The position numbers and the translations under genes are program-made. The notes under the pieces were generated by a model that worked only from the letters and a program-made list of their open reading frames with translations, did no database searches and was not told where the DNA came from. Below are positions 4,661-57,279 of a stretch of DNA of 64,000 nt, piece after piece. The DNA is from an uncultured cyanobacterium (lineage in GTDB: Bacteria; Cyanobacteriota; Cyanobacteriia; Cyanobacteriales; CAWUOF01), in the NCBI GenBank assembly GCA_963744145.1, contig CAVUSO010000001.1, positions 1,024,001 through 1,088,000 on the forward strand. The letters run 5' to 3'. How positions within the stretch are numbered: the stretch's first letter is position 1; each line of letters begins with the position of its first letter.

Positions 4661-4684
4661 CTGCTTACTCCAATAATTAATTGA

Positions 4685-6178: not shown

Positions 6179-6218
6179 AAGTCAATTTGAGAATGTTTCT
6201 ATTATTAATCTTTACCAA

Positions 6219-6977: not shown

Positions 6978-6989
6978 ATTAGCTACATC

Positions 6990-7607: not shown

Positions 7608-7609
7608 AG

Positions 7610-8824: not shown

Positions 8825-8851
8825 TAGTAAAACTCCTTTATTGGTAAAAAA

Positions 8852-9466: not shown

Positions 9467-9482
9467 GTCTGGTTCCCAACTA

Positions 9483-10226: not shown

Positions 10227-10574
10227 AAATGTATCTATTATTCTGTCTCCATTACTTTAGTTTTTGTTCCCAGATATTTCTGATATTTTCCCAAGTTAAC
10301 GATGGTCATATTAATCGAAGTATCTAGAGAAATAACTAGGTTTAACAACTACAAATTCTTGGTTTTCTATGAATAGTTACAGGTCTAAATTTCAGAGATC
10401 CGGATTTTCAGGTAAAAGATCTTACTGATTTAGGATTTACGCAGACTTAACCTAATTCTGTCCTCGGTGTTAATGTAGCTTGATGAAGCGTTAGTGAAAT
10501 TATGCCCGGGATCTTAGCCAGATTTTGAATTTCGCGATCGCGCTAATATTTTTACCAATTGAGTATTTATTCAA

Positions 10575-12742
<2,168 letters not shown>

Positions 12743-16609: not shown

Positions 16610-17707
<1,098 letters not shown>

Positions 17708-35794: not shown

Positions 35795-36823
35795 TCATTT
35801 TACCAATCTAATTAAGTAATATATAATAAACCTTAACAAAGTTAAAGGTGCATAAAAAGCTAAATCAAGTCCTGAAGTGCAGATGATAATTAACTGATGT
35901 ATTGTGCTAATTTTCCCAGATTTTATACCTGTTAATTCTTCCTTTAAACGAGCAACTTGATCTCGCTGTATTCCAATTTCTTTCCCTGAAACCCGTAGGG
36001 CTTTTTCTGTTAATTTAATAGCCTTTTTCTCATTTCCTTCAGCTTGAGCAAGTTCAGCTAATCGATACAGTACCCCAACTTTTGTATCGGTGCGATTAAT
36101 TTTGTGACTAAGTTGTAAACATTCTTTATAATATTTCCTAGCTTCTTGATAATTCCCCTTGAGCAAATACCATCGACCTAAATTGATTAGTGGTGCAGTT
36201 TGATAATAAACATATTCATCTCCCAAAGAGCGATATTTTTCTAGAGCAAGTAAAAGTTCGTTTAAACTAGGAGTTAAATCGGATAACTTCAGGTAGAGAT
36301 TTCCCAAAAGATTATGGATTTCCGCTAAGTGAGCTTGTTGTTTTACCTGTAATTCACGGACTGGATTTTCTTGAGCGGTAATAATATTGAGAGCTAGACG
36401 ATAGGATTTAAGGGCAGAACCAAAACGTCTTTGTCGATGATATAATACTCCTAGATATCGTAAAGATTCACATTGTCCATAAAAATAACTAACGTCTTTA
36501 AACATTCTTAAAGATTCTTTAAAATATGATTTTGCTCGCGCAAATTCTGCATTTTCCATATAATTCCAACCCATTTGGTTTAAGACATCTCCCTGGATGA
36601 TTGTCGTACATTCAAAGACAATATTCGCACCCTGAAAGTAATATTGCCAATATCCGAACTCCCATAAATCTTTACTAATGCGCTCCCACGAATATAAAAT
36701 TAAATAAAATAACTTTCTACTTTTAAGTCGGTCATTTTCTAATAAGAATCGGTCTTTTAAAAGTTTTAGTTCTTGAATACTATTATCTCTGTCATCATTT
36801 ATATTAAAATCAAATTTAGACAT
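35795..36823 (-). CDS. TPR-repeat protein
   Basis: About 6 TPR-like units (LNQMGW, LRYLGVLY, HNLLGNLY, LINLGRWY, LYRLAEL); likely start ATG 36823, 10 nt after the upstream gene. Confidence 0.85.
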   Translation of the reverse strand: MSKFDFNINDDRDNSIQELKLLKDRFLLENDRLKSRKLFYLILYSWERISKDLWEFGYWQYYFQGANIVFECTTIIQGDVLNQMGWNYMENAEFARAKSYFKESLRMFKDVSYFYGQCESLRYLGVLYHRQRRFGSALKSYRLALNIITAQENPVRELQVKQQAHLAEIHNLLGNLYLKLSDLTPSLNELLLALEKYRSLGDEYVYYQTAPLINLGRWYLLKGNYQEARKYYKECLQLSHKINRTDTKVGVLYRLAELAQAEGNEKKAIKLTEKALRVSGKEIGIQRDQVARLKEELTGIKSGKISTIHQLIIICTSGLDLAFYAPLTLLRFIIYYLIRLVK

Positions 36824-36833
36824 AAGGTTTGAT

Positions 36834-38690
36834 TTACTCTCTATTATTAGGTCCGTATTTCCATTGAACGAATTGCTCCAGTTCCTCCAGAGAAGGTTCC
36901 CATTTTTCAACTAAATCATTACGCACACTGGTTCTTACCCAGGGGTGTAAATCATATCGCTTTTCACCTACTATATCTCTAGTTTCTGCGATTAAATACC
37001 AACGGTTAAGTTCATTACTTGCTGTTGACCATTCAGATAAACCCCAACCTTGTGAAATTTCAGCTTGGGTAATACTAGCATTCTTTTGACTAAGAATATG
37101 TAAGAGTCGTTTAGAAGTCTGAGAAAGCGCTTTCCAAGCTGTTTCTAAGGCAAATTTATAAAAGATTTGCACTTCTCCACTTGCTTCTTCTAAAGCAGAT
37201 AGAACTGGGTCGATAGCATCTTGATTATCTACTAAACCAACAACAAAATGTAATGCTAGTGGTGCACCATAAGAAAATTCATGGATACGGTGTAATTCCT
37301 CTTCTGTTGCTTGGATAAGAGCTGGTATTTGTTTATAATTTGCTTCATCAAGTAAAAGTTTTTTTGACCAGATTTCATCTAATCCTGTGATGGGAAGCAA
37401 TTTAACAAATGTAGATTTAGCTTTGACCCGACTGGTTAAAAGCATTCGACTAGGGTTAAGTATTTTGGGGATTTTAGCTAATATATCTGAATAATCTGAT
37501 GTTTCCGCATTGTCTAAAACTATCAGTCGTTTTTTCTCTCTTAGATGTTGCTGAATCCGATTTTCTGAGTTAGAGCATTGTAGTTGAATCGCTATTTCTT
37601 CTACAAATTTATCCCAAGTAAGTGATGCCGATCGCTGACTTTTACTAATTTTACTATCTACTAACTCTGTATCTCTTGCTGTTACCCACAATACATCAGC
37701 AAAAATCTTTTGATCTAAAGCTTTTTTTGCGATCGCTTTTGCTGCTTCTGTTTTCCCATACCCAGGACTACCGCTTAAACAAAATATTGATAACTCTTCG
37801 GGAGATTTCAAATAGTTGATAATTTCGGTGACTAGATCATCTCTTCCCCATACGATTCGACATAGACGATCGGGGATAAATTTTCCTTTGATTTCTGTTT
37901 GTTTTTGAGTATCAATGTAGTTGGTGCTGTTTCCTTGCCAAAAATTAATCTCTGTTCCACTATGAAAATGTACTGGACGCTGAGGATAAGTTTGAAACTG
38001 AGGATGGTTCTGAAATTCAGTTACTACTCCACTGGCAATATCTATATTATTAATATATTTACCAATCCCATAACGTTCCGGTTTTAATACTTCTAATAAT
38101 AAATGAGTTAGCACTCCATGACCATCGACAGCATGAGCTATTTCTGAGTTACGACAAGCGGCGATGAAAGAACGGTTAACAGAAGTTTTTGCAGCTAGGT
38201 TATTGAATCTTTGTAATATCGATTCAGTCAATTGACCGCTGTGACAACAATCTAACCAAACTATCTGTTCAGGAACACTACTTTCCATCAGTTGATCTGC
38301 TAAAAAATCAAAGGGTACTCCCCATCGATCGTCTTCTGGTTTATAGTCACTTGTCCCTAAATACGCGATCGCTTTTCCATAATCATCATTAACTAAACCA
38401 TGTCCAGCAAAAAATAATAGGGCTGTTGTTTTCCCATCTTTAGCTTGAAATAACTCAAAAATCTTATCTTTGAGAGCTTTAGCTTTAACTAATCCTTTCT
38501 GATCTGTTTCAAATTTTCCCTCATCTTCTTTGTCCGGGACTATTGTCACTTCAAATTGACCATACTGTCTGAGTAAATCAGCGATCGCTTGTGCATCTAT
38601 AGCTGCGTAGTCCAGATGACAACTTTTACCATCACGATCTTTGAGGAAAGGATAGCGATTAATCCCTACTACCAATGCTTGTCGGGTCAT
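36834..38690 (-). CDS. Caspase (peptidase C14) + NB-ARC/STAND ATPase + winged helix
   Basis: ALVVGINRY; intact dyad FAGHG and LDCCHSG; Walker A GSPGYGKT, Walker B LIVLDNAE, LLTSR, GAPLAL, YDLHPWVR. Confidence 0.88.
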   Translation of the reverse strand: MTRQALVVGINRYPFLKDRDGKSCHLDYAAIDAQAIADLLRQYGQFEVTIVPDKEDEGKFETDQKGLVKAKALKDKIFELFQAKDGKTTALLFFAGHGLVNDDYGKAIAYLGTSDYKPEDDRWGVPFDFLADQLMESSVPEQIVWLDCCHSGQLTESILQRFNNLAAKTSVNRSFIAACRNSEIAHAVDGHGVLTHLLLEVLKPERYGIGKYINNIDIASGVVTEFQNHPQFQTYPQRPVHFHSGTEINFWQGNSTNYIDTQKQTEIKGKFIPDRLCRIVWGRDDLVTEIINYLKSPEELSIFCLSGSPGYGKTEAAKAIAKKALDQKIFADVLWVTARDTELVDSKISKSQRSASLTWDKFVEEIAIQLQCSNSENRIQQHLREKKRLIVLDNAETSDYSDILAKIPKILNPSRMLLTSRVKAKSTFVKLLPITGLDEIWSKKLLLDEANYKQIPALIQATEEELHRIHEFSYGAPLALHFVVGLVDNQDAIDPVLSALEEASGEVQIFYKFALETAWKALSQTSKRLLHILSQKNASITQAEISQGWGLSEWSTASNELNRWYLIAETRDIVGEKRYDLHPWVRTSVRNDLVEKWEPSLEELEQFVQWKYGPNNRE

Positions 38691-38781
38691 TGACAATTCA
38701 CTACTTGTATTTTAGAATGGTTGCTAAATATTTTATATTTATTCAGCTCATCCAAGCTAGGATCTTAAACAAAACTTCAAG
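38688..38781. repeat. 94-bp direct repeat, copy 1 (upstream region of a caspase gene)
   Basis: Aligns ungapped with 42511-42604, about 10 mismatches, last 31 bp identical. Confidence 0.9.
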
Positions 38782-42513: not shown

Positions 42514-42604
42514 TGACTATTCACTACTTGTATTTTAGAGTATTTGCTGACTATTCTATATTCATTCAACTCCTCCAAGCTAGGATCTTAAACAAAACTT
42601 CAAG
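42511..42604. repeat. 94-bp direct repeat, copy 2
   Basis: Matches 38688-38781; contains the stop codon of the 42600-43385 gene. Confidence 0.9.
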
Positions 42605-43385
42605 GATTATTAGTTTGTGAAGGGTTATTCGCATCGTCCCACAGTTGTTTAATTCCTTTGTACAAGCCATCATAATATTTTTGGTCTTGATAGCGGGTAA
42701 TAAAAATTACAATGCTTTCATGGGTTGGCTTAAACTCCGATATTAAAGGAGAAATCCTTGCCCATCCTTTAGGTGTTTCTGGATCGACGATCCAAATATT
42801 GCAAGTGGGAAAAGCATCATAAAGAGCATAATGTAACTGTTGCGGGTAAGTTTTTTTTAATTGATCTAGCTGGTCAGTAAAATTCTTTACATCTTGCTTT
42901 AAATCATTCAGCGATCGCTTCGTAAACTCTGCATAACTTTCAGCCATTTTACTATCAGGATCGAAAATCAAAAATTTTATTTTTAACTTGGAATTATTTT
43001 TCAAAGCTTCGTCAATATATACGCTCAATCCTTGACGTACAGCAGTAGAATAGGTTGCGGCTTTAATATAAATAGTATCTTGAACCAAATCCCAAACTTT
43101 ATTAATATCTTTATTAGCAGGTACTTCTCTCCTTCTTAAATATACTGATTCCACTGGTAAACTAATCGCTTTTTGCAATTTAACAATCACCCGTTCAATT
43201 AATTCTTCTTGCAAAAAATTTTTATACAGAGTTTCCACAACTCCGATTGCTAAGGTTGCTGACCCAGCATTGCTCAAGAAATCTTTTGCATATTGATAGC
43301 TACTCGGTATTAATGCTGAAATTAGCATCATCACCAAGCCTACTAAAATAATGACAGCACCTAAGAATTTATGAACAGTTTTCAT
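42600..43385 (-). CDS. 2TM protein with a DUF5919/PLD-like alpha-beta domain
   Basis: Two N-terminal TM helices; ESVYLRR, KIKFLIFDPDS, LYDAFPTCNIWIVD, F/Y..LWD pattern; no HKD motif. Confidence 0.55.
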   Translation of the reverse strand: MKTVHKFLGAVIILVGLVMMLISALIPSSYQYAKDFLSNAGSATLAIGVVETLYKNFLQEELIERVIVKLQKAISLPVESVYLRRREVPANKDINKVWDLVQDTIYIKAATYSTAVRQGLSVYIDEALKNNSKLKIKFLIFDPDSKMAESYAEFTKRSLNDLKQDVKNFTDQLDQLKKTYPQQLHYALYDAFPTCNIWIVDPETPKGWARISPLISEFKPTHESIVIFITRYQDQKYYDGLYKGIKQLWDDANNPSQTNNP

Positions 43386-43517: not shown

Positions 43518-45014
43518 TTAACCTAATATTATTTTATCATTCACTCCTCGGCATAAAAATTCTCGTACCCTAGCAATAACTTCTGCTTCAGTGCAACGAC
43601 TAGGACGGTAAAATATTGAAATAATAGGATCTTGCAATGTATTGGTACTCTCCATATTTTTGAAATTTAATTCTGATTGATTAGCCTCTTTCTTGGTTAT
43701 TAGTGCTTTCACTGTTTCACCCGGAAGTTTATGCAACCAGACTCCTACCTCTGGATCATAAGTCTCTTCACCACATAGCCATTCAAACATTTTATCTAGT
43801 AAATAAGCATTCATCCGCTTGATGGTAAAGTCACCCCTAGCTTGCAATTGGTAGGGATAAAGACCAAACGTAATAATTTTTAAATCTTTGCCTTTTTCAC
43901 CATAGCTTTTTTCTAAATCACGATCTTTATCCTCTTTCAAATCCTTCAAATACTTGGCAACGGCAAATTGATTTTCTATTTTGGTTTCTGTTTTGGTTCC
44001 TATTTTGGGTTCTATTTTTGTTTCTATTTTGGGTAACTTTTTTTTGAGCTTACCCCATTGTATGCTTAAGTTTTCCAAGGAGCGAGAGCGATCGCTCACT
44101 CCACATATATCAGGCAAAACTTTCATGTATAGTTTCTTATACTCATTATCATGTTTCAGCAAATCATCATTATTCTCAATGAGTTCGTTAATATGAATCA
44201 GAATAAGATGCCTGCCGATCGCCCGACACTGAGGCATACTAGAATTAGTCAATAACCAGCGTACTTCTGTGAGTTTATTTAATTGCTTATCTTCACATTT
44301 TTGCTCGATCCAATCTCGTTTATCCGTAGTATCTGGCAGTTGGGTAGTTGTGCCTTGAATCATATCTGATAGAATGCGTTTAAAGTTGATCAGAATTTCT
44401 TTATACTCGGAGTCAAACACAAGCTTTTGCATACCGTCTTTGACAAAATTAGTGCTGACTAACTCAAGCAATTGCTCATTCATACAAGGTGAGAGCATCT
44501 TGGTGTCTTTACCAATTTTGACATCAACAATGCAATGAGTACAACCGATCGCGATCCGTTTAGATAGAATAGAAGCATAAACAAACGGAAAATTAGTCAT
44601 CAGGTTCGTAGCACGACGAGCATCCATCAACACTTTATCAACGGGTGCTAAAGCGTCTGTTGGCTGACAAATTACGCCTTGTTCTTTTTTACATTCCTGC
44701 ACGATCGCTTCTGCATCGGTAGGAAAAGATAAACCACCACTTTCTAAAATATCCACTGTGCCACAGCTACCACCTTTAGAGGGAAGCTTGGTAACGTACA
44801 TCTTTTTATCTCCCTTTTTGTTATTTTCGCTTGCAGCTACCATCAGCCAGAGATAGCCAAAAATAGGAGTGATATTGGCAACGCATCCTGTTGATGCTAC
44901 ATCCCATCGCTGGGCAATATTTTCGCTTTCCCAAAGTTTTGACAATTGATCAGCTAGTCCCGATCGAGCCATTTCTTTAGTAAATTCATTGAGATTGAGT
45001 TTAATTTCGCTCAT
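43518..45014 (-). CDS. Divergent thymidine/pyrimidine-nucleoside/AMP phosphorylase (NP-II fold)
   Basis: TKEMARSG, DVASTGCV, GTVDILES, LAPVDK...RRAT, ASILSKR, VDVKIG and C-terminal DPEVGVWLHKLPGETVK...DPI match DeoA/Pdp motifs in order. Confidence 0.8.
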   Translation of the reverse strand: MSEIKLNLNEFTKEMARSGLADQLSKLWESENIAQRWDVASTGCVANITPIFGYLWLMVAASENNKKGDKKMYVTKLPSKGGSCGTVDILESGGLSFPTDAEAIVQECKKEQGVICQPTDALAPVDKVLMDARRATNLMTNFPFVYASILSKRIAIGCTHCIVDVKIGKDTKMLSPCMNEQLLELVSTNFVKDGMQKLVFDSEYKEILINFKRILSDMIQGTTTQLPDTTDKRDWIEQKCEDKQLNKLTEVRWLLTNSSMPQCRAIGRHLILIHINELIENNDDLLKHDNEYKKLYMKVLPDICGVSDRSRSLENLSIQWGKLKKKLPKIETKIEPKIGTKTETKIENQFAVAKYLKDLKEDKDRDLEKSYGEKGKDLKIITFGLYPYQLQARGDFTIKRMNAYLLDKMFEWLCGEETYDPEVGVWLHKLPGETVKALITKKEANQSELNFKNMESTNTLQDPIISIFYRPSRCTEAEVIARVREFLCRGVNDKIILG

Positions 45015-47782
45015 TTTTTTTCTTCCTGATGTTGAATAATTTTGTCTGGATGGTTTTGCAGTTGGATTAAAATACCGTCAACTTCTGGACGCAGATTTGT
45101 TCCCCGTGCCCCAAGGATAATCTTGTCAAAAACGTCCTTATATGCTTCTTCAGTTTTTGACTGATCGGGAACTTTGGGCATAACTTTTTCCAAATGCCAT
45201 GCTGAAGCTAGAAAAGCAAAAATCGAAGCCCAAGGATCGATATCTGGAAACTTGGAGGAATTGAGGCAATAGGCAGACAGCGCCCATCGGAGTTCTACCA
45301 TATCTAGCTTGCAGGTTTTGAGAGCAAATCGGCGGATCGTCGCGATCGCTTTGAGGGCGTTCCCGATCGGCAAAATCAATGCTTGAGACGCGGCGAGATC
45401 GGGCTTGATTAACTGAGCCACAAAAAATTCTGCACCATTTCCCTCAAATTCCACTGCCCGAAGCGCTAAATCAAGCAGGTGATAATGAAGCTTGTCTTGG
45501 CTACCTTGCGGCAATAGATTAGCCAGATTGACCAAAGAGGGAGTCAAGTGATGATTCCAGATTTCTACTTCCAGTTTGGCGAAGTCATAAGCCACCATGC
45601 CCCGATCCTGCGATCGCTCGAAGTCAATTAACCAACCCACCTGTTCCTGTTCGCTACCAAAGAGTATATTTTGCAGGTTAAAGTCGCCGTGAATAGTTCC
45701 TATATGAGCAGATAGGGTGTAGTGATAGGGAATTTTGGAGCGATCGCCAAAATAATCAAACGGGTTGGGCAATTTGTCTTTAATTCCTGGTAATTTTTCC
45801 AGCAGTTGATTAATTTCCTCACCCTTTGTTGAGAGGGCATCCTTTGTTAAAATGACCTTCTCTGCCAGGGCTACACTGAAAATCTTGTCTTGCATCTTCT
45901 TAACTTCTTGGCTGCGATCGTCCAGACACACCAGCACCTCCACCGGCATTCCCGGACGAATCCAAGTCGCACCAAACCGTTGACAAATATCTCTACCTCT
46001 GCCCCGCAGCTTGATGCGAACTCCCAGATCGGGATGGGCTAACATAACAGAACCTTCACCAAACTCCCCTTCTTGGGCGCTAACTTCTAACAACTGCCAG
46101 CCACAGAGCAAGATTTTCTCAGCATTTTGAAACTTTTGGCGATCGCCCCAAGAGGAAATATCTTCTTTGCCGGTTTTAATATCTTCTTTGTCGGTTTTCT
46201 TTTGCCTTTCCAGTTCAAACGATGCCAGAGTCCAAGCAGATTTTTCTTTGTACCCCTGAGCAATATAGGATTGCAGAGGCTTCACCTTACGCTCTTTGCC
46301 TTCGCCAGATAGATTAGCACTGTCGCTGGGGATCTCTAAATCGTCAGCAGAAACAAATTCTAAGGGAATCAGAACACCCGATAGAGGTGGTAGCGTGTTA
46401 CCTAGCCACTGCCACAAAGGAAGTTTTTCCGTTGAGAGTTGAGATTGGGCTATTCCAGAGTGAGAAAGGGGTTTGAGGACTTTTTCGAGGGTATTTTGAA
46501 TGCGACTGACGAGGAAATCTCCGCCTGTCGGTTGGTTGAGTTGTTGCTTCATCAAGTCATCCAGGGGACGCAAGCGCTGGTAGTCTTCTGGGAAACCAGC
46601 CAGAGAATACATCAGTGCGCCGGTGGGAATTTGCTCGCTGTTGCTGGGACTGACAACGGGTTTGCGGATGATGGCGGCGGCGTAGCTGTTGAGTCGGGGC
46701 TGGATCACTTGTTGATAAGCAAAATATTCTCTCTGGATGCTCAACCATGAACCAATTTTCATAAACCGGGTAGCCTGGTTTTTGGGCTTTAAGAAAAAAG
46801 TGGCTTGTGCGGCTGACTTGCCAGAGGTGAGCAGTTTGACGAGTTCGACTTCATCTCCACTAGGAAATAAGGTAGCAATCAGTGTCAAGAGGGAATCTCC
46901 CTTCGGGCTTTTATCCAGAGGTGGGGTCAAGCCAAGTTGTTTGAAGAATTTTTTGCCAAGGGGAGTGCTGATGTCAATTTTGAACTGGTTAGTAAAGGGA
47001 TTATCTTGATATGCGCTGTATAAGGTTTTAGCCGTTTCTTCTAAGTGATGTTCCAAACTGAGGTAGTGGAGAGGCTCGATCTGTTTTTCAACTTCATTAG
47101 CATTCTGTTGGGTAGAGCTATCATTATCATCTCTATGATGGGTTTGGTTTTTGTAGAAGCACCAAGATGCTCCATAGGATAAGCCTTTCTCTAGGTATTT
47201 GAGTTCTTTAATACCTGTAAATAAGAAAGAGGGAATTTCTGGATATTTCTGAGAAAGAATGTGGATGGCACGGTATCCCATGATTTTCCATTTTTCCTCT
47301 TCCTCTTCCTTTGGAATAAAATCAGTCAGGGTGGGTTTCCACTCAAAATCGACTATAAATGCCGCAATATGAGGGCGATCGCGTTCTACCTGGTCAAAGG
47401 TTATTGTAGAGGCAATTAATTCGTAACTAGGCTCTGTATTATTGCTAGGAATCCAAAGCGGTGGTGCTTTGACATCAAAGACTAATGATAAGCTGTTTAG
47501 GTTTAGACAAAATCCTTTTAAAATCTCTTCCAGATCACTATCACGATCATCACACTTGATTTTTTTGAGACAGTAATATTTGCCAATTTTTTTATCATCT
47601 GTCTTAAAATCTCGGACTATATATATATTTTTTTCGATGTCGAAAGTAACGTAGTTATTATAGTCGTCAAAAACATAAATAACTGGTTTGAGACCACCCA
47701 GGGTAATATAAAAGCTCCGGTATAGGCTCTTTTGGATAGCTTTGATATCATCTGGAATTAAATGGGACAATAGCGATGTCAT
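45011..47782 (-). CDS. Receiver domain + APH/TCAD9-like phosphotransferase (kinase)
   Basis: REC: VIYVFDD, AFIVDFEW, PSFLFTG, GASWCFYK. Kinase: TSGKSAA, FMKIG...REY..Y, HGDFNLQNIL, WLIDFE, YDFAKLE. Confidence 0.8.
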   Translation of the reverse strand: MTSLLSHLIPDDIKAIQKSLYRSFYITLGGLKPVIYVFDDYNNYVTFDIEKNIYIVRDFKTDDKKIGKYYCLKKIKCDDRDSDLEEILKGFCLNLNSLSLVFDVKAPPLWIPSNNTEPSYELIASTITFDQVERDRPHIAAFIVDFEWKPTLTDFIPKEEEEEKWKIMGYRAIHILSQKYPEIPSFLFTGIKELKYLEKGLSYGASWCFYKNQTHHRDDNDSSTQQNANEVEKQIEPLHYLSLEHHLEETAKTLYSAYQDNPFTNQFKIDISTPLGKKFFKQLGLTPPLDKSPKGDSLLTLIATLFPSGDEVELVKLLTSGKSAAQATFFLKPKNQATRFMKIGSWLSIQREYFAYQQVIQPRLNSYAAAIIRKPVVSPSNSEQIPTGALMYSLAGFPEDYQRLRPLDDLMKQQLNQPTGGDFLVSRIQNTLEKVLKPLSHSGIAQSQLSTEKLPLWQWLGNTLPPLSGVLIPLEFVSADDLEIPSDSANLSGEGKERKVKPLQSYIAQGYKEKSAWTLASFELERQKKTDKEDIKTGKEDISSWGDRQKFQNAEKILLCGWQLLEVSAQEGEFGEGSVMLAHPDLGVRIKLRGRGRDICQRFGATWIRPGMPVEVLVCLDDRSQEVKKMQDKIFSVALAEKVILTKDALSTKGEEINQLLEKLPGIKDKLPNPFDYFGDRSKIPYHYTLSAHIGTIHGDFNLQNILFGSEQEQVGWLIDFERSQDRGMVAYDFAKLEVEIWNHHLTPSLVNLANLLPQGSQDKLHYHLLDLALRAVEFEGNGAEFFVAQLIKPDLAASQALILPIGNALKAIATIRRFALKTCKLDMVELRWALSAYCLNSSKFPDIDPWASIFAFLASAWHLEKVMPKVPDQSKTEEAYKDVFDKIILGARGTNLRPEVDGILIQLQNHPDKIIQHQEEKK

Positions 47783-47801: not shown

Positions 47802-48374
47802 TCAAAACTTATCTTTATTTTCGTGCAAGTATTTAAATGTATCAAACATTAGTTGTTTTTCTTCTTTTCTGTTTGTTTTACCACTAATTGTTAAATCTTC
47901 AAATTGTTTCCAATTAAAATCAGGATCGGTTGGATTTCTTGAACAACACATATCAGGCTTTTCATTAGGTTTATCTCCAGTTGCATAAGCAATGACATCT
48001 TCAATATCATGAATAGTTACTTCAAATTCATCTAGCTCAGTTTTGCGAAAGATTCGCTCTCCCAAATCCCTTCTTTCTGGTTTTCCCGGGCTGGCAAACC
48101 AAAATATTTTGTCAGCTTGAATTTTACTATCTGTCCATATTTCTTCATTACTAGAGTGAATAAATACCACTAACATTTTCGGTAATTGTTTTATTTCATT
48201 CTCATCCAGATTCCCTTCAGTTTTAGGTTTATGTTTCTTGATTTTACCTATATCTGAAACCACATAAACTTCAGTAAATTTACTAGGCAAAATAATTTCA
48301 CTCCATTTCTTCCATCTGTCGATAACGCTATCAACCAAGCAGAATGTTAGTATATTTGTGTTTGCCGATGTCAT
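47802..48374 (-). CDS. Hypothetical alpha/beta protein, possibly a degenerate stand-alone receiver domain
   Basis: FCLVDS..R, LVVFIHSS, IFWFASPG strand pattern; AGGAG RBS; in operon. Confidence 0.5.
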   Translation of the reverse strand: MTSANTNILTFCLVDSVIDRWKKWSEIILPSKFTEVYVVSDIGKIKKHKPKTEGNLDENEIKQLPKMLVVFIHSSNEEIWTDSKIQADKIFWFASPGKPERRDLGERIFRKTELDEFEVTIHDIEDVIAYATGDKPNEKPDMCCSRNPTDPDFNWKQFEDLTISGKTNRKEEKQLMFDTFKYLHENKDKF

Positions 48375-48391: not shown

Positions 48392-50026
48392 TTACTTTTC
48401 TTTTTCATTAATAAAAGAAATAGCAACTAATCTAAGTGTATCCTCTTCCATGTAAATTGAACTAGGGCTAAAAAAACCTTTGTCGCTAATCAACAAATTC
48501 ATCCACAAGCTTATTATTGCTTCTCTTGTATTACCAACAGGTTTAGGAGTATAAATATTTTTCGCCAGAGCGGATACTTTTTTAGCTAAACTTTCCGTTT
48601 CTCTTGGGGCAGGCTCATCAGCAGGCCATTTAAAGACAATGTTTAATGCAGTTCCCTTGTACTGGAAGAACGCTTTGCTTACCATAGATGTTTCTGCTGA
48701 ATCCCGTTGCTGAAATAAATGAAAAAACAATTGACATAAAGCGATCGCTGATGACTGAGCTGTGTCTACATCTTGCCGATGAAATAAAGGTGATTTTGCT
48801 GCACTGAGATCTTGCCAGTCAACCCTTTGAGTCAGAAATTGTATATCCATATCTTTCCAAGCTAGACGGTGTGCCATAAGTGCTAATAAATAAGCTGCTC
48901 CAACTGAAATATGGCGACTTCTTTTAGGATTATCTTGGCCTAAAAAATAACTACCACAAAGATGCTTAAGGGATTCATGTAAGTTCTTAACAGAATTTTC
49001 ATTCCACCAATGCTCAGGAAAAGTAAATCCAAGAGCTTTTTGAATTTCTTCTTTATATTTATCAACCTCATATTTAATGTCAGCGTTAGTCTGACTTTCT
49101 TGAAAATGTTTAGCGATTTTTTGAGATTCATGTTCCAATATAAAGTCTTTCTTAACATCCGATGCTGAAAACCAGTTAGCTGTTGAATTCCATAGTTGTT
49201 TCAGTGTTATTTCTATAGAACTAGAATATGAGTAGATTGAATCAGGAACACCTCCATTTTTTGTAAGAATAATAGGATGATCACTATTTCTTACCATTGG
49301 GCGTTGAGGCTTATCAAAATTTTTTTCTACTATAAAATTTTCATCCGGTCTGTCTTCAATAAACTCTTTAAGTATATGGCTAGTAATCCAATCACGAGAC
49401 TTTGATAATTTAGGGTTAAGACCTTCGATAAGAGCTTTGACTAGGGGGCTACGATCATCTGCATCAGCATAGAGTGGCTCTTCTACGTTGGATGAGACAA
49501 TCCAGCAGCGATCGCGCCCTGGTTTATCTTCATCATCTTCAGGAAATTCCAATAGTTCTCCACTATGGCCACAAACTAGCCAAACAACTTGTTGGGGAAC
49601 AGGACTTTTTTTCAGCAATCCACGCAACCATTGGAGAGAAACGCCCCACGCTGGCTTACCTTTGCTATTTTCGCTTTTAGTATCGCTAGTTGCTAGAAAT
49701 CCTTCAAAGTTACCTGACTGGTTTGTTCGGCGAAGACCGATTCCGGTAAAAAATAGCAGGGCTGTATCAGGTATACTTTCTTTGGCTGCGAATAAATCTG
49801 TAATGGCAGTTACCAAATCTTTTTGCCTTACCAATCCATTAGGATCGAATTGCCATTCATCGAGTCCAAACGGCAGTCGCTTGACTTCAAAGCCGCCATA
49901 TATTTCCAAGAGACGGGCGATCGCTTCTGCATCTCTAACAGGCGTAGTTAATTTCGGAGTAAGGCCATCCTTATCCTTGAGCTGGGGATACTTATTTATA
50001 CCGACAACTAATGCTTGTCTCCTCAT
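48392..50026 (-). CDS. Inactive caspase-like domain fused to an unknown C-terminal domain
   Basis: RQALVVGINKY, DAEAIA; dyad degenerate (FTGIG for FAGHG; LVCGHSG for LDCCHSG). Start ATG 50026 or 50041. Confidence 0.8.
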   Translation of the reverse strand: MRRQALVVGINKYPQLKDKDGLTPKLTTPVRDAEAIARLLEIYGGFEVKRLPFGLDEWQFDPNGLVRQKDLVTAITDLFAAKESIPDTALLFFTGIGLRRTNQSGNFEGFLATSDTKSENSKGKPAWGVSLQWLRGLLKKSPVPQQVVWLVCGHSGELLEFPEDDEDKPGRDRCWIVSSNVEEPLYADADDRSPLVKALIEGLNPKLSKSRDWITSHILKEFIEDRPDENFIVEKNFDKPQRPMVRNSDHPIILTKNGGVPDSIYSYSSSIEITLKQLWNSTANWFSASDVKKDFILEHESQKIAKHFQESQTNADIKYEVDKYKEEIQKALGFTFPEHWWNENSVKNLHESLKHLCGSYFLGQDNPKRSRHISVGAAYLLALMAHRLAWKDMDIQFLTQRVDWQDLSAAKSPLFHRQDVDTAQSSAIALCQLFFHLFQQRDSAETSMVSKAFFQYKGTALNIVFKWPADEPAPRETESLAKKVSALAKNIYTPKPVGNTREAIISLWMNLLISDKGFFSPSSIYMEEDTLRLVAISFINEKEK

Positions 50027-50082
50027 GTCTGCTACATCCATTACAATTACAATTGGTATGGTATCTCAACATTAACACGATT

Positions 50083-50568
50083 ATGTCTCATTATGAATCT
50101 GAAGCCTATCCATCTGCTACATCGACTCCTGCTGCCACCAGTACACTATTAGCTCTGTTACTGGCTCTGAAAAACCTAGAATCCCATCTCAACAAAAATG
50201 AACTAGCACAACTCTATGAAATAGGCGAACAACTAAAACTTGACCCAGATGATTGGGAGTTTATCTATGATGGGTTAAAAAGCATTGTTGAAAGCAACAC
50301 TTCTCTCAAGGAAGCTTTTCAATCTGCATACGCTCGCGTCCTAGATGACGATGAGAGTGTTATTAGGAAAGATGTGATCTCTTCATTGGAGATTCGCGGT
50401 TATGTCGATAATGAACAAGATTTGGTCAGTAGAGCAGTTATTTATATTACAACTAGGTTACTTAAAAGTGACGATCTGCAAACCACAGCCAGAAACCTAA
50501 ACCTACCTTTTTCGATTACGGATACGGATAGGGACTTCAGAACAATCTCCATAATAGAACGTAGATAA
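50083..50568 (+). CDS. Small hypothetical protein, paralogue A
   Basis: TLLALLLALKNLE...EIGEQLKLDPDDWEFI, shared with 50759-51199; in-frame ATG at 50083. Confidence 0.75.
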   Translation: MSHYESEAYPSATSTPAATSTLLALLLALKNLESHLNKNELAQLYEIGEQLKLDPDDWEFIYDGLKSIVESNTSLKEAFQSAYARVLDDDESVIRKDVISSLEIRGYVDNEQDLVSRAVIYITTRLLKSDDLQTTARNLNLPFSITDTDRDFRTISIIERR

Positions 50569-50758: not shown

Positions 50759-51199
50759 ATGGACACAATCTTTCGCGACAAAACATTGCTAGCCCTCTTA
50801 TTAGCTTTGAGAAACCTGGAAGACCCACTTAGCCAATTTCAACAGGCCCAGCTACATGAGGTAGGTGAACAACTAAAGCTTGACCCAGATGATTGGGAGT
50901 TTATTGAAGAGGGGTTGCTGGCTGTTGTTACTAGCAATACATTGCTCAATAAAGAGTTTGAAACTGCCAAAGCTAAATTAGATTCTGTGGATAATATCCA
51001 AGAACTCCTACCTACTGACAACGATATAGATGAGAAGATTTTTCTCAAGATAGAGAGACGTGGGAATAACACCGAACAAGAGGAAAATAGGCCACCGATT
51101 GTAAAAATAACTTGTAAGTTTTTAAAAGATGATGATCTAGCCAAAATAATCAAAAAATCAAGTTGGATTGAGCGAGTTTTGAACAGCCTAAATTATTAA
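50759..51199 (+). CDS. Small hypothetical protein, paralogue B
   Basis: TLLALLLALRNLE...EVGEQLKLDPDDWEFI. Confidence 0.8.
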   Translation: MDTIFRDKTLLALLLALRNLEDPLSQFQQAQLHEVGEQLKLDPDDWEFIEEGLLAVVTSNTLLNKEFETAKAKLDSVDNIQELLPTDNDIDEKIFLKIERRGNNTEQEENRPPIVKITCKFLKDDDLAKIIKKSSWIERVLNSLNY

Positions 51200-51248: not shown

Positions 51249-54200
51249 ATGGTTAAACTTGTCTTAAATTTCAGACAGGGAAGTTTTGAAAAGGGATTTG
51301 ATGCGACCCTGGAAATAAGCGATCGCGATCGCATTTCCACAATACAGGGTCAACTACCACCACAGCCCACCCTACCCAAAATCTATGAAGATTGGCAAAA
51401 TATCTTTAATACATACGATTTAGGAGAGGAAGAAATTGTCAAAGAAAAAGCAAAACCTCTGCGCGAGGATTTGAACACCTGGCTAAATTCGGAATTGTTT
51501 AGTCCGATTAAATCTAAATTAGCAGAAATTTTCACATCATCTGAAGAAGTTCGCTTGTTAGTTCAAGCCGAAAACTATCAACTCTGGCGACTTCCTTGGG
51601 AGCAATGGGACTTTTTCGCTAATTATCCCCAACTTGAAATAGCATTGAGTTCCCCAGTATCTAAATCTATCAAAAGATGTCCCCTGAATCAACCAAAAAC
51701 TAAAATTAGAATTTTATGTATTCAATGTAACACTAAGAAAATTGATACGGAAATTGATATCAAAGCCTTAAAAACTTTTTTCCAAGATCAGGCAGATATA
51801 AAATATGTTAGCAAGCCTAGTAAGAAAGAACTGTCTCAATATTTGAGAAATAAAAAAGGTTGGGATATGATCTTTTTTGCGGGTCATTCTAGCACGGATA
51901 GCCAGCAAAGAGGTATCCTTGAAATTAACGATGAAGAAAATTTGACAATTCCTGAATTAAAGTATGCTTTAAGAGCAGCGATCGCTCTGGGCTTAAAATT
52001 AGCAATTTTCAATTCCTGTGATGGTTTAGGATTAGCCAGAAACTTAGCTGACTTGCAAATCCCTAGCGTAGTTGTTATGCGAGAACCAGTTCCCGATCAA
52101 GTAGCTCAAGTATTTGTCGAAGAATTTCTTAAACAATTTGCCAACAATGAATCATTATATGCTTCAGTGCGACAAGCACGGGAAAGTTTAAAAACCCTAG
52201 AAAATCAGTATCCTTGTGCTAGCTGGTTACCTGTAATTTGTCAAAATCCAGCCGAAGATGCGATCGCTTATGAGGGGTTACTAAATGGATTAAATACCGA
52301 TACAAACTGGGAAGGAGCTTGTCGTACTCTACTCACTCTGGATGCGATTAAACGGCTCGAATCAAATATGTTGACAAATAAAAAGGGTATAGAAATTGAC
52401 GATATTTATGTTCCCCCTAACTTAGATTTAGTCAAACGATTTAAGAAAAAAGATCCAAAGGAGTTATCCCAGGAAGAACAAGAACAGCAAAAAAGAGAAA
52501 ATCAGTTTCTCGATATTTATCAAGAGGATAATTTTTTCAAACAAGTAATCGAGTCGGGAAGAAGTATTTACAGCCAAGGGCGCAGATTAGCAATTATTGG
52601 CGAAGCAGGGATCGGCAAAAGCCTATTTTTACAACGGCTCGGACGAATGGATTGTCTGGGAGTCAAACACTACCCATCAAGTTGTGATCTGGGTATCTTT
52701 AGCTGACTTGAAAACAGCGCAAAGTCTGGAAGACTATCTCCAGCAAAATTGGCTTGAACGCGCCAAACAACAAGTAAAGATTCCCGCAAATAATCAAGAA
52801 GATTTAAGATTGCTATTTGCATCAAGACGAGTATTCTTGCTGTTAGATGGAGCCGATGAAATGCCTGTCCGCATTGGTAATCCTCTCGAAGTAATTGTCA
52901 GACAGCTCGCTACTTCTGAGTGGATTTCTCAAGCAAGGATTTTACTAACTTGTCGCGTCAATGTCTGGGAAGCCAACCAAAATATTTTGCAAAATTTCGA
53001 TGTTTACCGTCACTTAGATTTTAGCGATCGCGCTCAATATGGTCAACCGATTAACCAAGTAGAAGCCTTTATTTCTGGTTGGTTTAATGGTAGTAAACAA
53101 CAAAGAAAAATTGGTCTAAATTTGCGCCAAGAGTTAGAGCAAGAAGGCAAGCAAAAAATTAAAGATTTGACCAAAAATCCCTTGCGGTTATCATTGCTAT
53201 GTTTAGTGTGGGAAGAGCAGGGGAGGTTGCCAGATACTAAAACAGAACTTTATCAGCAATTTGTCGAGGAAATTTATAAATGGAAGCAACAGCAATTGAA
53301 GCTAGATAAATCCAAAATAGAAAATTTAAACAAAAAATTAGCAGAGTTAGCAAAACAAACGTTAGATCAAAAAAACATATTACCTCGACAAAAATTGTCA
53401 GACAATCTACCTCTAGCAGAAATAGAACTACTGTCTCCATTTCGGATTTCTCATGTTTTAGCAAGGTTAACTCTTGGTAAGGATTTTGACTTAGCACTAA
53501 AGTTGGGTTGGTTGAATCAGGTAGGAGTCTCGCCAAACAAAACAGAGGAACCCATCTATGCCTTTTTGCATCCGAGTTTCCAGGAATATTTTGCGGCACA
53601 AGCTATTGCTTTTGATCAGTGGAATTATTTTTTAGACAGCGGCAACGAGATTCATCGAGTTTTTGAGCAGAAGTGGCGGGAAGTAATTTTGTTTTGGTTT
53701 GGACGACCTAGTGAGAAAAATATTGATAATAAATACTGGAAAGAAAGTTTTATCACAAGGATTTGGAAATATAACGATTTTTGTAAGGGATTTTATGCAT
53801 TTAAAGCACGGCTTTTAACGGCGGAAGCTTTGGGAGAATTTAGAGATTGTAGTGATGAAATAGCAGAAAAAATAATAGCTGAAGTCGTTAAATTTAGCAT
53901 TTGCTATTATATTGATGAAAATGATTTTTCCTTACCTGAACAGGCAATAAGAGAGAGAGGTTATGCAGCACTATTGCAAATAAATAGTAGCAAATTTAAA
54001 GATTATTTAGTCAAACTTCTAAGTCGTCTTCCGCTAGATCACATAGTTAGTCGTTCTGAGATTGCTGATGTTCTAGCACAATTAGATCCTGGTAATCAAG
54101 AAGCTATTAATACTCATCTTGATTTGATCAAAACTGTTAAGACTGGAGATTATAACTTTGCCTGTGGGCTTATTCGCTATAGTTCAATGAAAAAAATCCA

Positions 54201-56134
54201 GCAAATAGCTCATGGGAATGCTGTTGCTATTAAAGAGTTAAAACAGCTATTATATAGGTCTCAAGATGAGCATGAGCGGGCGCGTATTGCTACTACTTTA
54301 GTAATAATTGCTAGTAAGGAAATAGCAGAAAAAGGTTTGAACACCTTAATTGAGTTATTATATAATTGCCTACCAGATTATGTTTTATCTTATTTAGATT
54401 ATTTTGAAATGATTGCCATTAATAATTTCGATCCTGATACAAAAATAATGGTGGTTGAACGACTGACTAAATTACTTAATCCTATTGAATACAGACAATT
54501 GCCTAGTGAGTGGAAATTGAATAGACACAAAATTCCTTGGTATGAAAACTCTTCACATCAAAATACTTATAGTCATCTTAAAATTTCCGCTTTTACACAG
54601 TATTTACGGATTAGTATAGTTGCAGCTCTTAGTTTATTAAAAATTCAGCCAGAACATAAAGCTGCGGTCAGAACATTGGTTGAGTTCCTAGCAATTGATC
54701 CCAACAAGTATCCTTTAATCCAGCATATTGATGCGAATCATATCTGTCAGATAATTGCTTATCAAATAGAAAACTCTCGTATTGATAATCAAACGCTTAT
54801 CAATACCTTGAGTGAATATATCACAACGATTGATGATCAAGATGCTTTGTTGTGGTCCTGTTAACCTTTTAGGAAAAGTAGCCGCCGGTACAAATGATGA
54901 AGGTGCTATTATTGCCCTAAATTCACAACTACAGACAACCTCGGAGTCTAACCGGAAAATATCTTATACTTTTCCGAACATAGCTCATACTTTGGGAAAA
55001 GTAAACCCAGGTAACCCTGATGCTATACAAGCTCTTACTAAATTAATACGTTTTCCAATTACTAATCGTCATGAGGTTTCTGAACTTTCCGAATCGATAA
55101 GATTACTTGGAGCAATCGATCTAAACAATCCAGAAGCCACTAAAGCTCTAATTAAATTGCAACAGTTTGCTCAATCTAGATTGGATGATTTTATTAAACG
55201 GTTTGACATCAAACCGGAAAATGTGGATCAGGCTCTCTCTGAATTGTTGAGCGAATACTGTAAAAAATTTGGGTACGAATCTAAAATAACAGAAGTTGTA
55301 AGAGAAGCTTCAGGAATACATACACTATTCATCGAAAATATTAAAATTTTTGCAGAGATCAATCGTGAAAATACAGAATCCATAAACTTTTTAACAAAAC
55401 TGCTAGCCCATCCTGAAGAACGAATCCGTTTTGAAGCAGCTTTGAGTTTGGCAAAAGTTGACCCAGGCAATTTAAACGCACTCAATGCACTGGTTGTAAT
55501 ATACCGTACTGCTAAGACAAAATACTATTTTGAATTTGATGGTTCGTTACCTAATCAGTTACTAGAAATTAGAGATCCTCAACGCCGTAAAAATCTGATT
55601 GGAGCTATCACTGAAATAATAGAGACTGAACCACCATCCGAATGCTATTATATTGCTGAAGCTTTGGCTAAAGCCGATCCGGGAAATGACCGGGCAGTGA
55701 CAACCTTGCTCGATTACTTGCAAAATCCCCTAAATGACCCACTTAGAGCTAGCGCTACGAGAAAAATAATTAAAACTTTAAAAGCAACTTTGCGAGAAGA
55801 ACAATTTAAACAAATAGTAAGTAGATTTAAAAATCCTCTATTCGATGCCGAGAGTAACAATGATACAGAACAATTTGAAATCTACTATGAACTCTTCTTG
55901 CATTGTGCTGAAAATATTAGCTATCGTGACTTCTTTCAAGCTTTGCACTATAACTCGGGTTTCATTAGTAATATGAAACCCTCTACGCATGCACGAGTTA
56001 TAGCGATCATTATAGCAGGCGAAGCATGGATGAAGATGAGCAGTTGCGTATCTATAATCAAAAGGTTATTATTGTTTGTGTATAAACGGTTATATGCTGT
56101 GTGGATATTTATCATTCGTTTTTTAGACAGGTAA
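51249..56134 (+). pseudogene. CHAT-NACHT-HEAT protein, copy 1, split by two +1 frameshifts
   Basis: Three ORFs collinear with 57280-62457; extra base at ~52643 (CTCGGACGAATGG vs CTCGGCGAATGG) and at ~54855. Confidence 0.85.
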
Positions 56135-56394
56135 CGTAAATAAATCAATAGCTACACAACACTCCCCTATCTGTTCTATGGGGCGATCGCGACCAATAAA
56201 TCATCACTCTTCTGAGTTTAGTTCTGATTACTGGTTTGTTAGCAGAAAGCGAGGGCTAAAACCCCTACTACAAACAATGTTTAACCTGCACTTTCCAGCG
56301 TTCCTAATCCCAAAAGTGTAGCTCTTGTTACTGACATGATCTGAACAAGTTCGGTTGCTAGTTGAAGCTGAGAGCGATCGCTATACTCATCAAA

Positions 56395-56706
56395 TCACCT
56401 TTGATAAACAGAAAGAGCAAAATCTAAGACTTCACGCTTGCGTTCCTCTGATAAACGGGAAACTACAGCATTTACCTGCTCAGATAGGGGCAGCCAACTC
56501 TTAGTTTTCGCTTTCCAAACCACAATTAACTGTTCAGATAATAGTGTACACAACGCAACAGTTTCCCCATCTTGATTGCTAAATTCAACTTCATACTCAT
56601 TATGATCAAAACACTCCACAATGGCTCCCTGAATCCCTGCAAGAAGATTATATTCAGGTAAATCTACTAATAACTCAATGACATCAAATAATTCTGGCTC
56701 AATCAT
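56395..56706 (-). CDS. DUF4926-like protein (putative antitoxin)
   Basis: ELFDVIELLVDLPE..L.AG.QGAIVE...YEVEF....GET. Confidence 0.8.
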   Translation of the reverse strand: MIEPELFDVIELLVDLPEYNLLAGIQGAIVECFDHNEYEVEFSNQDGETVALCTLLSEQLIVVWKAKTKSWLPLSEQVNAVVSRLSEERKREVLDFALSVYQR

Positions 56707-57083
56707 TCTTGTTTCCTCACATATAACGTTACTAATCTAGCCACATCACTACCAGGCTCAACGATCCAACCCGTCCGAACAATCTCTTGCTGTCCCTCTT
56801 CTAGCCCTCTAACCTCCAAATCTACCTGATAGCGTTGTCCGTGTTCATCTGTACGCTGCAAAATTGCTTCAGTTTCTAAGGCTTGAACCAAAATCTGTTG
56901 TAGTAGGGATTGATAGTTATCTTTAGTAAAACCTAGATGACGCTCGAACATGACAGCTTTATCAGCCCCTTTGGGATTATCCAAGTTAAGTGAGTATTCT
57001 GTCAGCTTACGAGGATCGATAACCAAGCGGCGGACAATATCTCCGAGCTTCATATTTACCTGCTCATTGCCTAGCAAAAACAT
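56703..57083 (-). CDS. DUF6883-like protein (putative nuclease toxin)
   Basis: IDPRKLTEYSLN..NPKG.DKA..F...LGF, HGQRY, VRTGWI, RLVTLY; ATGA overlap with the downstream gene; start may be ATG 57053. Confidence 0.78.
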   Translation of the reverse strand: MFLLGNEQVNMKLGDIVRRLVIDPRKLTEYSLNLDNPKGADKAVMFERHLGFTKDNYQSLLQQILVQALETEAILQRTDEHGQRYQVDLEVRGLEEGQQEIVRTGWIVEPGSDVARLVTLYVRKQE

Positions 57084-57279
57084 AAATTGGCTGCCACTAG
57101 CTAATCATTATAGCCTAATTGACCTTTATGACTCTTTTTTTCCAAATTTTGTCAATTTATCTGATCCAGATCGACTAAAATTGATTTAGCTCATTTATAA
57201 TACCACAATAACTAGGACATACTTGAGCAAAAAAAACTGTGTTGCTTGTATTTGTAGTAATTATTCTGACTAATCACCG

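Follow-up and report, generated by a model that had tools for sequence, protein, structure and literature searches.

What does a protein of the nucleoside phosphorylase family II (NP-II) fold, a textbook salvage and drug-target fold, do when it carries a different active site and is coupled to a kinase? The question is raised by a gene at positions 43518..45014 (minus strand) of a 64,000-nucleotide stretch of DNA, here called the window, from an uncultured cyanobacterium (assembly GCA_963744145.1, contig CAVUSO010000001.1). Its product of 498 residues, read from an ATG start, resembles thymidine phosphorylase (TP) and pyrimidine nucleoside phosphorylase (PyNP), as indicated by its open reading frame (ORF), its matches in the PDB, its predicted structure and its family context. 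It is the split C-terminal module of a family in which TCAD9 kinases and NP-II domains belong together, and the source cyanobacterium carries this kinase/NP-II machine as three translationally coupled genes. We conclude that the protein is not a salvage enzyme. The reading that we prefer, and which we put forward tentatively as a little short of probable, is that it may work together with the kinase as an enzyme on a more anionic, nucleotide-like substrate, making or breaking N-glycosidic bonds, and serve as an effector or a signal generator.

Homology of the protein to NP-II enzymes is secure and lies far above chance. When it was compared by phmmer with PDB sequences, 14 of the 17 matches were NP-II enzymes, the best being PyNP 7m7k_B (E 6e-8), and E. 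coli TP (1azy_A) was matched over query residues 81-186 at E 1.2e-7. A profile of 25 homologues gave 14 PDB matches, every one of them NP-II and the best to 1brw_A at 1.5e-16; it also aligned the C-terminal segment YDPEVGIWLHKLPGE weakly to the PYNP_C region. Pfam by itself would miss this membership, with PF00591 remaining below its gathering score (12.6 bits versus 27, E 0.11). The TP and PyNP models of NCBIfam match at 1e-15, starting at model position 55-60 and staying below their cut-offs (57.1 bits versus 409 for TIGR02644 and 54 versus 269 for NF004490), and the ESM Atlas returned only leads below 0.9 to 'thymidine phosphorylase' clusters.

The original prediction had proposed a homologue of thymidine and AMP phosphorylases and had suggested structure prediction and superposition as a check. 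An AlphaFold2 model built from a 25-sequence alignment (pLDDT 86.8, pTM 0.91) led Foldseek to PyNP 1brw_A (E 6.9e-13), with the TP, PyNP and AMP-phosphorylase entries all ranking next. VIA-align placed archaeal AMP phosphorylase 4ga5_A first (Z 25.9, root-mean-square deviation 3.1 Å, 342 residues aligned) and gave Z 23.7 for PyNP 1brw_A, Z 21-24 for PyNP and TP entries as a group and about 14 for TrpD. The alpha/beta glycosyl transferase family 3 fold and a PYNP_C-like domain are both present in the model, at Z 21-26 over residues 1-494, and the predicted structure is that of a true NP-II protein, C-terminal domain included. The NP-II fold and the TP homology were thereby upheld, and the likeness to AMP phosphorylase proved to be one of fold only. 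The lead of the archaeal enzyme (4ga4/4ga5) over PyNP as best structural match is only about 2 Z units, its model TIGR03327 scores 26 bits versus a cut-off of 535, and its extra N-terminal domain has no counterpart in our protein, whose model aligns with chain residues 96-493. Among NP-II enzymes, archaeal AMP phosphorylase uses nucleotides as substrates, not nucleosides, and this is the substrate class that we infer for the protein studied here.

For the active site, residue numbering was fixed by alignment to the annotated E. coli DeoA, and 22 positions were tabulated over 127 aligned domains taken from the best 150 matches of a profile search that covered 1.84 billion representatives. The domains comprise 43 canonical ones (DKHSTGG), 24 with a DxPSTGG loop, 59 of the DxASTG type (hereafter the kinase-linked rows, our protein among them) and one other. 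The original prediction had read DVASTGCVAN in place of DKHSTGGVGD, with the Lys and the catalytic His gone, and the alignment agrees: at residues 38-47 (44874..44903, minus strand), Lys84, His85 and Asp92 of DeoA are replaced by Val39, Ala40 and Asn47, and Ser86 (Ser41) and Thr87 are retained. Ser95 and Ser113 become Pro50 and Pro78, Tyr168 becomes Met130, and Phe210 becomes Lys172 (44499..44501, minus strand). Leu246 and Asn252 become Gln262 and Arg268 at the two ends of QCRAIGR (residues 262-268; 44211..44231, minus strand), a clade-specific Gln/Arg/Arg motif where canonical enzymes have L-x-S-x-x-G-N. The base-clamp segment RRATNLMTNFPFVYASILSK (44559..44618, minus strand) keeps Arg171, Ser186 and Lys190 as Arg133, Ser148 and Lys152 and has Arg134 for Asp172; Thr123 is kept as Thr86. 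Retention of the nucleobase-binding Arg (DARRAT) and of the Ser and Lys (ASILSK), all within residues 131-152, and of GT.D.LES (GTVDILES, residues 85-92) had also been predicted correctly. From TP structures, we take Lys84, Ser95, Ser113 and Thr123 to bind phosphate and Tyr168 and Phe210 to stack on the ring, and we presume that Ser86 is to be counted with Ser95, Ser113 and Thr123 among the phosphate-site residues. PMC5238616 describes what Arg171, Ser186, Lys190 and His85 do in E. coli TP.

The kinase-linked rows share these exchanges almost to the residue. Lys84, present in 43 of 43 canonical rows, is found in none of the 59 and has become Val, Leu, Phe or Ile. His85 is replaced by Ala in 55, Asp92 by Asn in 55, the Ser or Thr at position 95 by Pro in 56, Tyr168 by Met in 53, Asp172 by Lys or Arg in 55, Phe210 by Lys in 57, Leu246 by Gln in 47 and Asn252 by Arg in 49, with Arg at position 248 in 47. 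At the position of Ser113, 40 of the 59 clade members have Ser, although our protein has Pro78. Retention is just as regular: Ser86, Thr87 and a Lys at position 111 occur in all 59 rows, Thr123 and Asp164 in 55 each, and the base-binding residues Arg171, Ser186 and Lys190 in 57, 58 and 56, respectively. In a set of 35 sequences with 27-60% identity to our protein, K76, G85, D88, S148, D164, K166, G168, K172, R264, G267 and R268 (its own numbering) are invariant. With the lost residues replaced by the same residue almost everywhere in the 59 rows, the pattern is a coordinated exchange of site residues and not the scatter of a decaying site. The new residue set adds roughly four positive charges (net) at the rewired site, and the new Lys and Arg residues would line the pocket, judging from the positions of their canonical counterparts.

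Outside the active site, the original prediction had the N-terminal helical domain missing. This domain is shortened, with 37 residues ahead of the loop where 40 canonical sequences have a median of 79.5, and PF02885, the N-terminal helical/dimerisation domain, gives no match; about half of it remains, as two helices in the model. Close homologues start at the same place, which indicates that the short N-terminus of the 498-residue protein is real, and this comparison also shows that its start is the right one and not that of P0001, a public gene call. That entry is identical in sequence, begins at Met58 and has 441 residues, so that the DVASTG loop is cut off. Sister cyanobacterial forms and fused forms carry about 35 extra residues, which align where E. 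coli DeoA has its N-terminal helices, and the truncation is therefore limited to the small subclade of our protein. The long charged insertions that had also been claimed are present. Measured against the 40 canonical sequences, extra residues fall into 12 segments and total 144 of the 498, and the insertion at residues 333-376 (43887..44018, minus strand), which is 36-75% charged, has no counterpart in canonical NP-II enzymes.

The kinase partner to which the original prediction alluded is real and is fused to the NP-II domain in most relatives. In the window it is a separate 923-residue protein (45011..47782, minus strand) whose gene stop overlaps the NP-II start as ATGA. It matches PF19974 at 1.7e-51 (176 bits versus a cut-off of 40) and is predicted to consist of a REC-like domain (residues ~31-253) and a TCAD9 kinase domain (~282-869). 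The usual family form is one polypeptide with an N-terminal domain, a receiver-like domain, the TCAD9 kinase and the NP-II domain, and residues 29-915 of the separate protein share 38% identity with residues 1-1014 of a fused one. All 34 long proteins scanned (25 at E<=1e-30 and nine weaker) have TCAD9 ahead of the NP-II part; these are 34 of 37 such proteins, with P0066, P0106 and P0148 left out. We also compared related loci, namely the window and 15 loci from genome and metagenome collections (the fragments L044-L046 being set aside), and in each of the 13 that have DNA upstream of a full NP-II match, TCAD9 is either fused or lies immediately upstream. The remaining N-terminal part of the machine is provided by a 190-residue ORF (47802..48374, minus strand), a detached form of the N-terminal domain of longer TCAD9 proteins that is 35% identical over 153 residues (E 1e-19) to the N-terminus of L001:4675-7983. 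Separate homologous ORFs occur in loci L036, L037 and L038, and the ESM Atlas returned nothing for this ORF.

The kinase is apparently active and of the type that acts on small molecules. G321, S323, K342, H698-G699-D700, N702, N705 and D720 are invariant in 33 TCAD9 proteins and E352 is nearly so, which we take to be the full set of residues of a working eukaryotic-like kinase. In the model of the TCAD9 protein (pLDDT 83.6), the kinase domain most resembles APH(3')-Ia (Z 15.5), and maltokinase from mycobacteria (Z 13.8), PsiK, glucosamine kinase and 5-methylthioribose (MTR) kinase (Z about 12) are further neighbours. The kinase rows among the best 50 VIA-align matches all belong to the APH family; they act on small molecules or, in the case of 9dk2_A and 8jsu_D, come from peptide-modification systems. 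No Hanks-type protein kinase appears among those 50 rows; the Foldseek list does contain partial matches to the kinase domains of TNIK and ALK5. Residues 31-253 match response-regulator REC domains (Z 11.4, 114 of 117 residues, deviation 2.2 Å), and the family consensus retains DD, D, T and K at what we presume to be the receiver positions. A predicted complex of TCAD9 residues 424-923 with the NP-II protein scored 0.01 against a mark of 0.32 and, being run without controls, is evidence neither way.

Other TCAD9 proteins carry different enzymes at the same end. The fused relative P0038 (1476 residues) has an extra endonuclease/exonuclease/phosphatase (EEP) domain after its NP-II part. L068:6673-8994, from another family of the phylum, joins a weak isochorismatase-like N-terminus and TCAD9 to a C-terminal dual-specificity (DSP/PTP) phosphatase domain, and a methyltransferase gene follows it. 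With NP-II, DSP/PTP and EEP variants occurring there, the C-terminal end of TCAD9 proteins seems to act as a slot whose enzyme can be exchanged.

The profile search returned 246 representatives at E<=1e-10 and 38 proteins at E<=1e-30. Of these 38, 25 (1146-1700 residues) have a C-terminal NP-II domain, nine (421-520 residues) are full-length and stand alone, and four are fragments. A FastTree phylogeny of 106 domains, comprising all 84 non-canonical and 22 of the 43 canonical rows, was computed with SH-like support and without bootstrap; its branches are long and its root on the canonical group is assumed. All 22 canonical rows are set apart by a branch with support 99. The kinase-linked proteins, ours included, make up a clade of 55 rows that also has support 99. 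The comparison with housekeeping enzymes that had been suggested alongside the original prediction thus finds no grouping with salvage phosphorylases. The protein belongs to a 16-row stand-alone clade nested among fused forms, and therefore the cyanobacterial genes look like the product of a split fusion.

The same rewiring extends, beyond anything in the original prediction, to a large radiation in which Tyr168 and Phe210 are also swapped. Basal to the kinase-linked clade are P0057-P0085 and others, mostly stand-alone proteins of 417-608 residues from the 'thymidine phosphorylase family'. They have a DxPSTGGxGNK loop without the Lys-His pair, a complete N-terminus, the same Met168, Lys/Arg172, Lys210 and PQGR..GR changes, and scores far below the NCBIfam cut-offs. 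These proteins are probably mis-annotated as salvage enzymes.

Within the phylum the system is rare. Only the source genome among 401 sampled genomes has a full-length NP-II match, and it holds one copy each of the NP-II and TCAD9 genes. A further 114 matches in the sampled genomes (1e-11 to 1e-20) are partial, come from other families of the phylum and represent canonical enzymes. TCAD9 occurs in 20 of the 401 genomes, 19 of them lacking this NP-II gene, and one TCAD9 protein from those 19 follows a WD40 protein. Viral contigs gave 54 pattern matches and no confirmed relative of the NP-II protein, plasmids gave only partial matches to canonical deoA in 13 records, and a plasmid search with the stand-alone relative P0067 returned mostly canonical PyNP. 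Among sequencing runs, two DNA metagenomes and no RNA data set were listed for the sequence.

The genes that accompany the machine differ between cyanobacteria and other bacteria. The cyanobacterial form is a conserved cassette of five elements: a small divergent gene, a caspase homologue, the 190-residue domain, TCAD9 and NP-II. In the window the caspase homologue is a 549-residue protein (48392..50041, minus strand; PF00656 at 2.6e-7) with a conserved C-terminal domain of about 300 residues and unassigned fold. It precedes TCAD9 in seven of eight split-type loci, L043 being without it. The motifs GHG and C-C-H-S-G presumably hold the catalytic His and Cys of caspases. The source protein reads GIG for GHG and VCGHSG for the DCCHSG of neighbouring caspase-STAND proteins, and in all six full-length operon copies the His is Ile, Arg or Val (GIG/GRG/GVG) and the Cys is Gly or Ser (C-[GS]-x-S-G). 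Both GHG and CCHSG are intact in three neighbouring caspase-STAND proteins (window 36834-38696, L002:10054-12105 and L038:2002-4653), and in related loci the operon protein shares 35-44% identity with the active caspase domains of STAND proteins nearby. From these residues, it looks like a catalytically dead paralogue that may serve as an adaptor or decoy. A caspase profile gave no caspase match among PDB sequences.

The small divergent gene (50759..51199, plus strand; 146 residues) is conserved upstream of the caspase homologue, and its BLASTP matches L036:4588-5034, L001:1570-2022 and L038:4687-5136 are likewise each transcribed away from the caspase gene. The window has a paralogue of it at 50011-50568 (plus strand), and neither small protein has a Pfam family. 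The same hairpin, CCCAGATGATTGGG, occurs in both genes, at 50244 and 50884, which points to local duplication. A promoter and terminator scan found no excess over shuffled sequences.

Outside the cyanobacteria, the gene directly downstream of the TCAD9-NP-II fusion in L042:11461-17379 and L039:5089-9891 encodes a giant protein (1972 residues in L042). A NUDIX box at its N-terminus is joined in the same chain by domains 3, 6 and 7 of RNA polymerase beta and by domains 2 and 5 of beta', and the beta' metal-binding motif AADFDGDE is intact in both copies. By this domain content it is a single-chain beta-beta' polymerase-like enzyme. The next gene in L041:3822-5633 likewise has a NUDIX box and a match to beta domain 3, and the contig ends after 604 residues. 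A NUDIX-box protein follows the fusion in three of the four fused-type loci with downstream DNA, and AADFDGDE is seen in two of the four. Ahead of the fusion, L003 and L042, which are 80% identical and were counted as one lineage, encode a sigma-54-type AAA+ protein with receiver-like parts and a 1036-residue protein without a Pfam family; L040 has a histidine-kinase ATPase gene about 5 kb upstream.

The immunity setting suggested in the original prediction is supported by the neighbourhood, and the cassette lies within an immunity/cell-death island. It is surrounded by a caspase-NB-ARC gene with its TPR partner (35795-38696), an HNH gene and two CHAT-NACHT-HEAT systems (51249-62457), and related loci hold caspase-NACHT, caspase-WD40, EAD4-NB-ARC-TPR and WYL genes. 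Some candidate extensions of the system were set aside. Related loci conserve neither the 261-residue membrane protein encoded downstream (42600-43385) nor any ORF past it. A shared adaptor domain is not supported: the 190-residue ORF has no similarity to the caspase homologue, and the caspase family has none to the 1036-residue protein ahead of the fusion in L042. PADLOC-DB 2.0 gave no match for the NP-II, TCAD9, 190-residue or downstream proteins and only a generic caspase match for the caspase homologue, and PHROGs matched none of six proteins of the locus. Elsewhere in the window are a nonulosonic-acid-type sugar cluster (3611-12727, minus strand; NeuB, cytidylyltransferase, DegT aminotransferase, Polysacc_synt_2 and HisF/HisH-like genes) and a photosystem II reaction-centre gene (16610-17692, minus strand) that confirms the cyanobacterial host.

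Set beside known systems, the protein has every feature by which we define the TCAD9-kinase/NP-II fusion family in this analysis, namely the DxASTG...N loop, Pro50, Met130, Lys172, PQCRAIGR and a fused or adjacent TCAD9. With TP and PyNP (DeoA, Pdp), it shares the two-lobed fold and PYNP_C-like domain (about 342 residues aligned, Z 21-24), the Ser86/Thr87 loop, Thr123, Asp164, Arg171, Ser186, Lys190 and the DVK.G strand. It differs from them in eight swapped site residues, a halved N-terminal domain, about 144 inserted residues, constant coupling to a kinase and a place outside any salvage (deo-type) operon. TrpD has the same superfold and is more distant from the model (Z about 14, versus 23-26 for TP, PyNP and AMP phosphorylase), aligning with residues 1 to about 354 and lacking the PYNP_C-like domain. 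The TrpD loop likewise lacks the Lys-His pair, and YbiB of the TrpD2 branch is a precedent for a fold member that binds nucleic acid without catalysis. The operon caspase resembles c-FLIP, a catalytically dead caspase paralogue, in retaining the caspase fold without His and Cys; the bacterial protein differs in its C-terminal domain of unassigned fold.

Among conflict systems, the vWA-MoxR-VMAP ternary systems share with this locus a clear TCAD9 (PF19974) member. Pfam scans of 44 window ORFs and of flanks of related loci turned up no MoxR, vWA or VMAP family, which rules out a VMAP ternary system despite the Pfam name TCAD9. The effectors of CBASS, Detocs and VMAP systems that resemble PNP or MTAP would have a similar role, cutting the base from a nucleotide, if our preferred reading is true; they use the unrelated NP-I fold versus NP-II here. 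Both APH-type kinases and NP-I-type (PNPase) domains are treated by Kaur et al. 2020 (PMC7159879), who predict a base-cutting conflict role for PNPase-superfamily domains; the nucleoside-phosphorylase-type effectors predicted there use the NP-I fold. Its main text and two of its supplements contain neither TCAD nor thymidine phosphorylase, and other supplements may list the architecture. In the literature searched, the name TCAD9 was found only in a figure legend of one paper, and searches pairing TP/PyNP terms with defence terms returned nothing relevant and no NP-II example from a conflict system.

What, then, might the machine do? In the reading that we prefer, the NP-II domain would still bind a ligand made of base and pentose, but one more negatively charged than a nucleoside: it might be a nucleotide, or else a phosphopentose (ribose-1,5-bisphosphate or PRPP, for example). 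The N-glycosidic bond would be broken or made by a mechanism that does without His85. The kinase half, whose closest structural relatives phosphorylate hydroxyls of small molecules or sugars, would make or consume the phosphorylated partner of this reaction, and the receiver-like domain could gate the whole. The output might be destruction of nucleotides or a nucleotide-derived signal, and in cyanobacteria the dead caspase may be the adaptor that links this output to the active caspase-STAND death modules nearby.

Several observations weigh against this proposal. The lost Lys84, His85 and Ser95 are, we assume, the residues that activate phosphate and stabilize the leaving group. Conservation of the pocket fits a pure ligand sensor equally well, and a few clade members (P0052, P0056) lack pocket residues. 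The substrate class of the kinase is drawn from fold neighbours at modest Z values of 12-15.5 on a 923-residue model. The putative defence role is drawn from the neighbourhood; PADLOC has no model for the kinase or the NP-II protein, and searches of viral contigs and plasmids found no relative. According to PMC7159879, the source paper on systems of the TCAD9 type, modules are typically acquired in inactive form, and the neighbouring caspase homologue is indeed dead. The main rival is a pseudoenzyme that binds a nucleoside, nucleotide or base of host or phage and allosterically switches the kinase, which would then be the output. We rate it as possible and less likely than an active enzyme. 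It would account for the loss of Lys84, His85 and Ser95 in all 83 non-canonical rows alongside the retained binding residues Arg171, Ser186 and Lys190, for the C-terminal position, which is where STAND-like immune proteins usually place their sensors, and for the use of another inactive borrowed module, the caspase, in the same operon. It sits less well with replacement residues that are nearly invariant over very divergent sequences, catalytic-loop positions included, with the effector-typical enzymes (DSP/PTP, EEP) in the same slot of other TCAD9 proteins, and with the occurrence of the rewired site in many stand-alone proteins, which lack a kinase that they could control.

A cationic pocket could instead be directed at nucleic acid, either binding DNA or RNA without catalysis in the manner of TrpD2/YbiB or flipping out and excising a base, possibly a modified phage base. 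The gain of about four positive charges around a retained base clamp, the association with a polymerase-like protein and the EEP domain of P0038 are all compatible with such a role. Nevertheless, Ser86/Thr87 and Thr123 of the small-molecule phosphate/ribose site are kept and the nearest folds (Z 22-26) are small-molecule phosphorylases, and we regard this explanation as improbable. An ordinary salvage thymidine or pyrimidine phosphorylase that has merely diverged would have the same fold and base-binding triad, as this protein does. It would not be expected to score 57 versus 409 bits with TIGR02644 and 12.6 versus 27 with PF00591, to lack Lys84 and His85, to fall in a separate clade with strict TCAD9 linkage, to have no full-length match in the 400 other sampled genomes of the phylum and to lie outside a deo-type operon. 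We consider it so unlikely that it can be given almost no weight.

Returning to an active enzyme, one more specific form of it deserves mention as a speculation that we think unlikely. The kinase, whose fold neighbours include MTR kinase and maltokinase, would be a sugar kinase of anomeric type. It could make a pentose-1-phosphate-like donor to which the NP-II domain would join a base, or the NP-II domain could run the reaction in reverse on a nucleotide. The product of this two-step synthase might be a dedicated nucleoside- or nucleotide-like second messenger or a toxic analogue that triggers caspase-STAND death through the dead-caspase adaptor in multicellular cyanobacteria and feeds or controls the NUDIX and beta-beta' polymerase protein in proteobacteria. 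If true, immune signalling by nucleotides would gain a new class, one based on the NP-II fold.

What is new here is the active-site variant and the architecture; the fold and the building principles of conflict systems are known. Enzymes that cut nucleotides or turn them into signals are central to bacterial immunity, and to our knowledge the nucleoside-phosphorylase-type effectors described so far all have the NP-I fold. In this family, an NP-II enzyme with a coherent, conserved alternative site comes as a fixed set with a small-molecule kinase and a receiver-like switch, and the natural fusions offer a directly testable pair, two sites on one polypeptide. The machine recurs in the cell-death islands of multicellular cyanobacteria and, elsewhere, next to an unusual polymerase. 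If the NP-II domain is inactive, it would be a clean case of a metabolic enzyme turned ligand sensor. If it is active, it would represent new chemistry for the NP-II fold and a new class of effector or signal generator.

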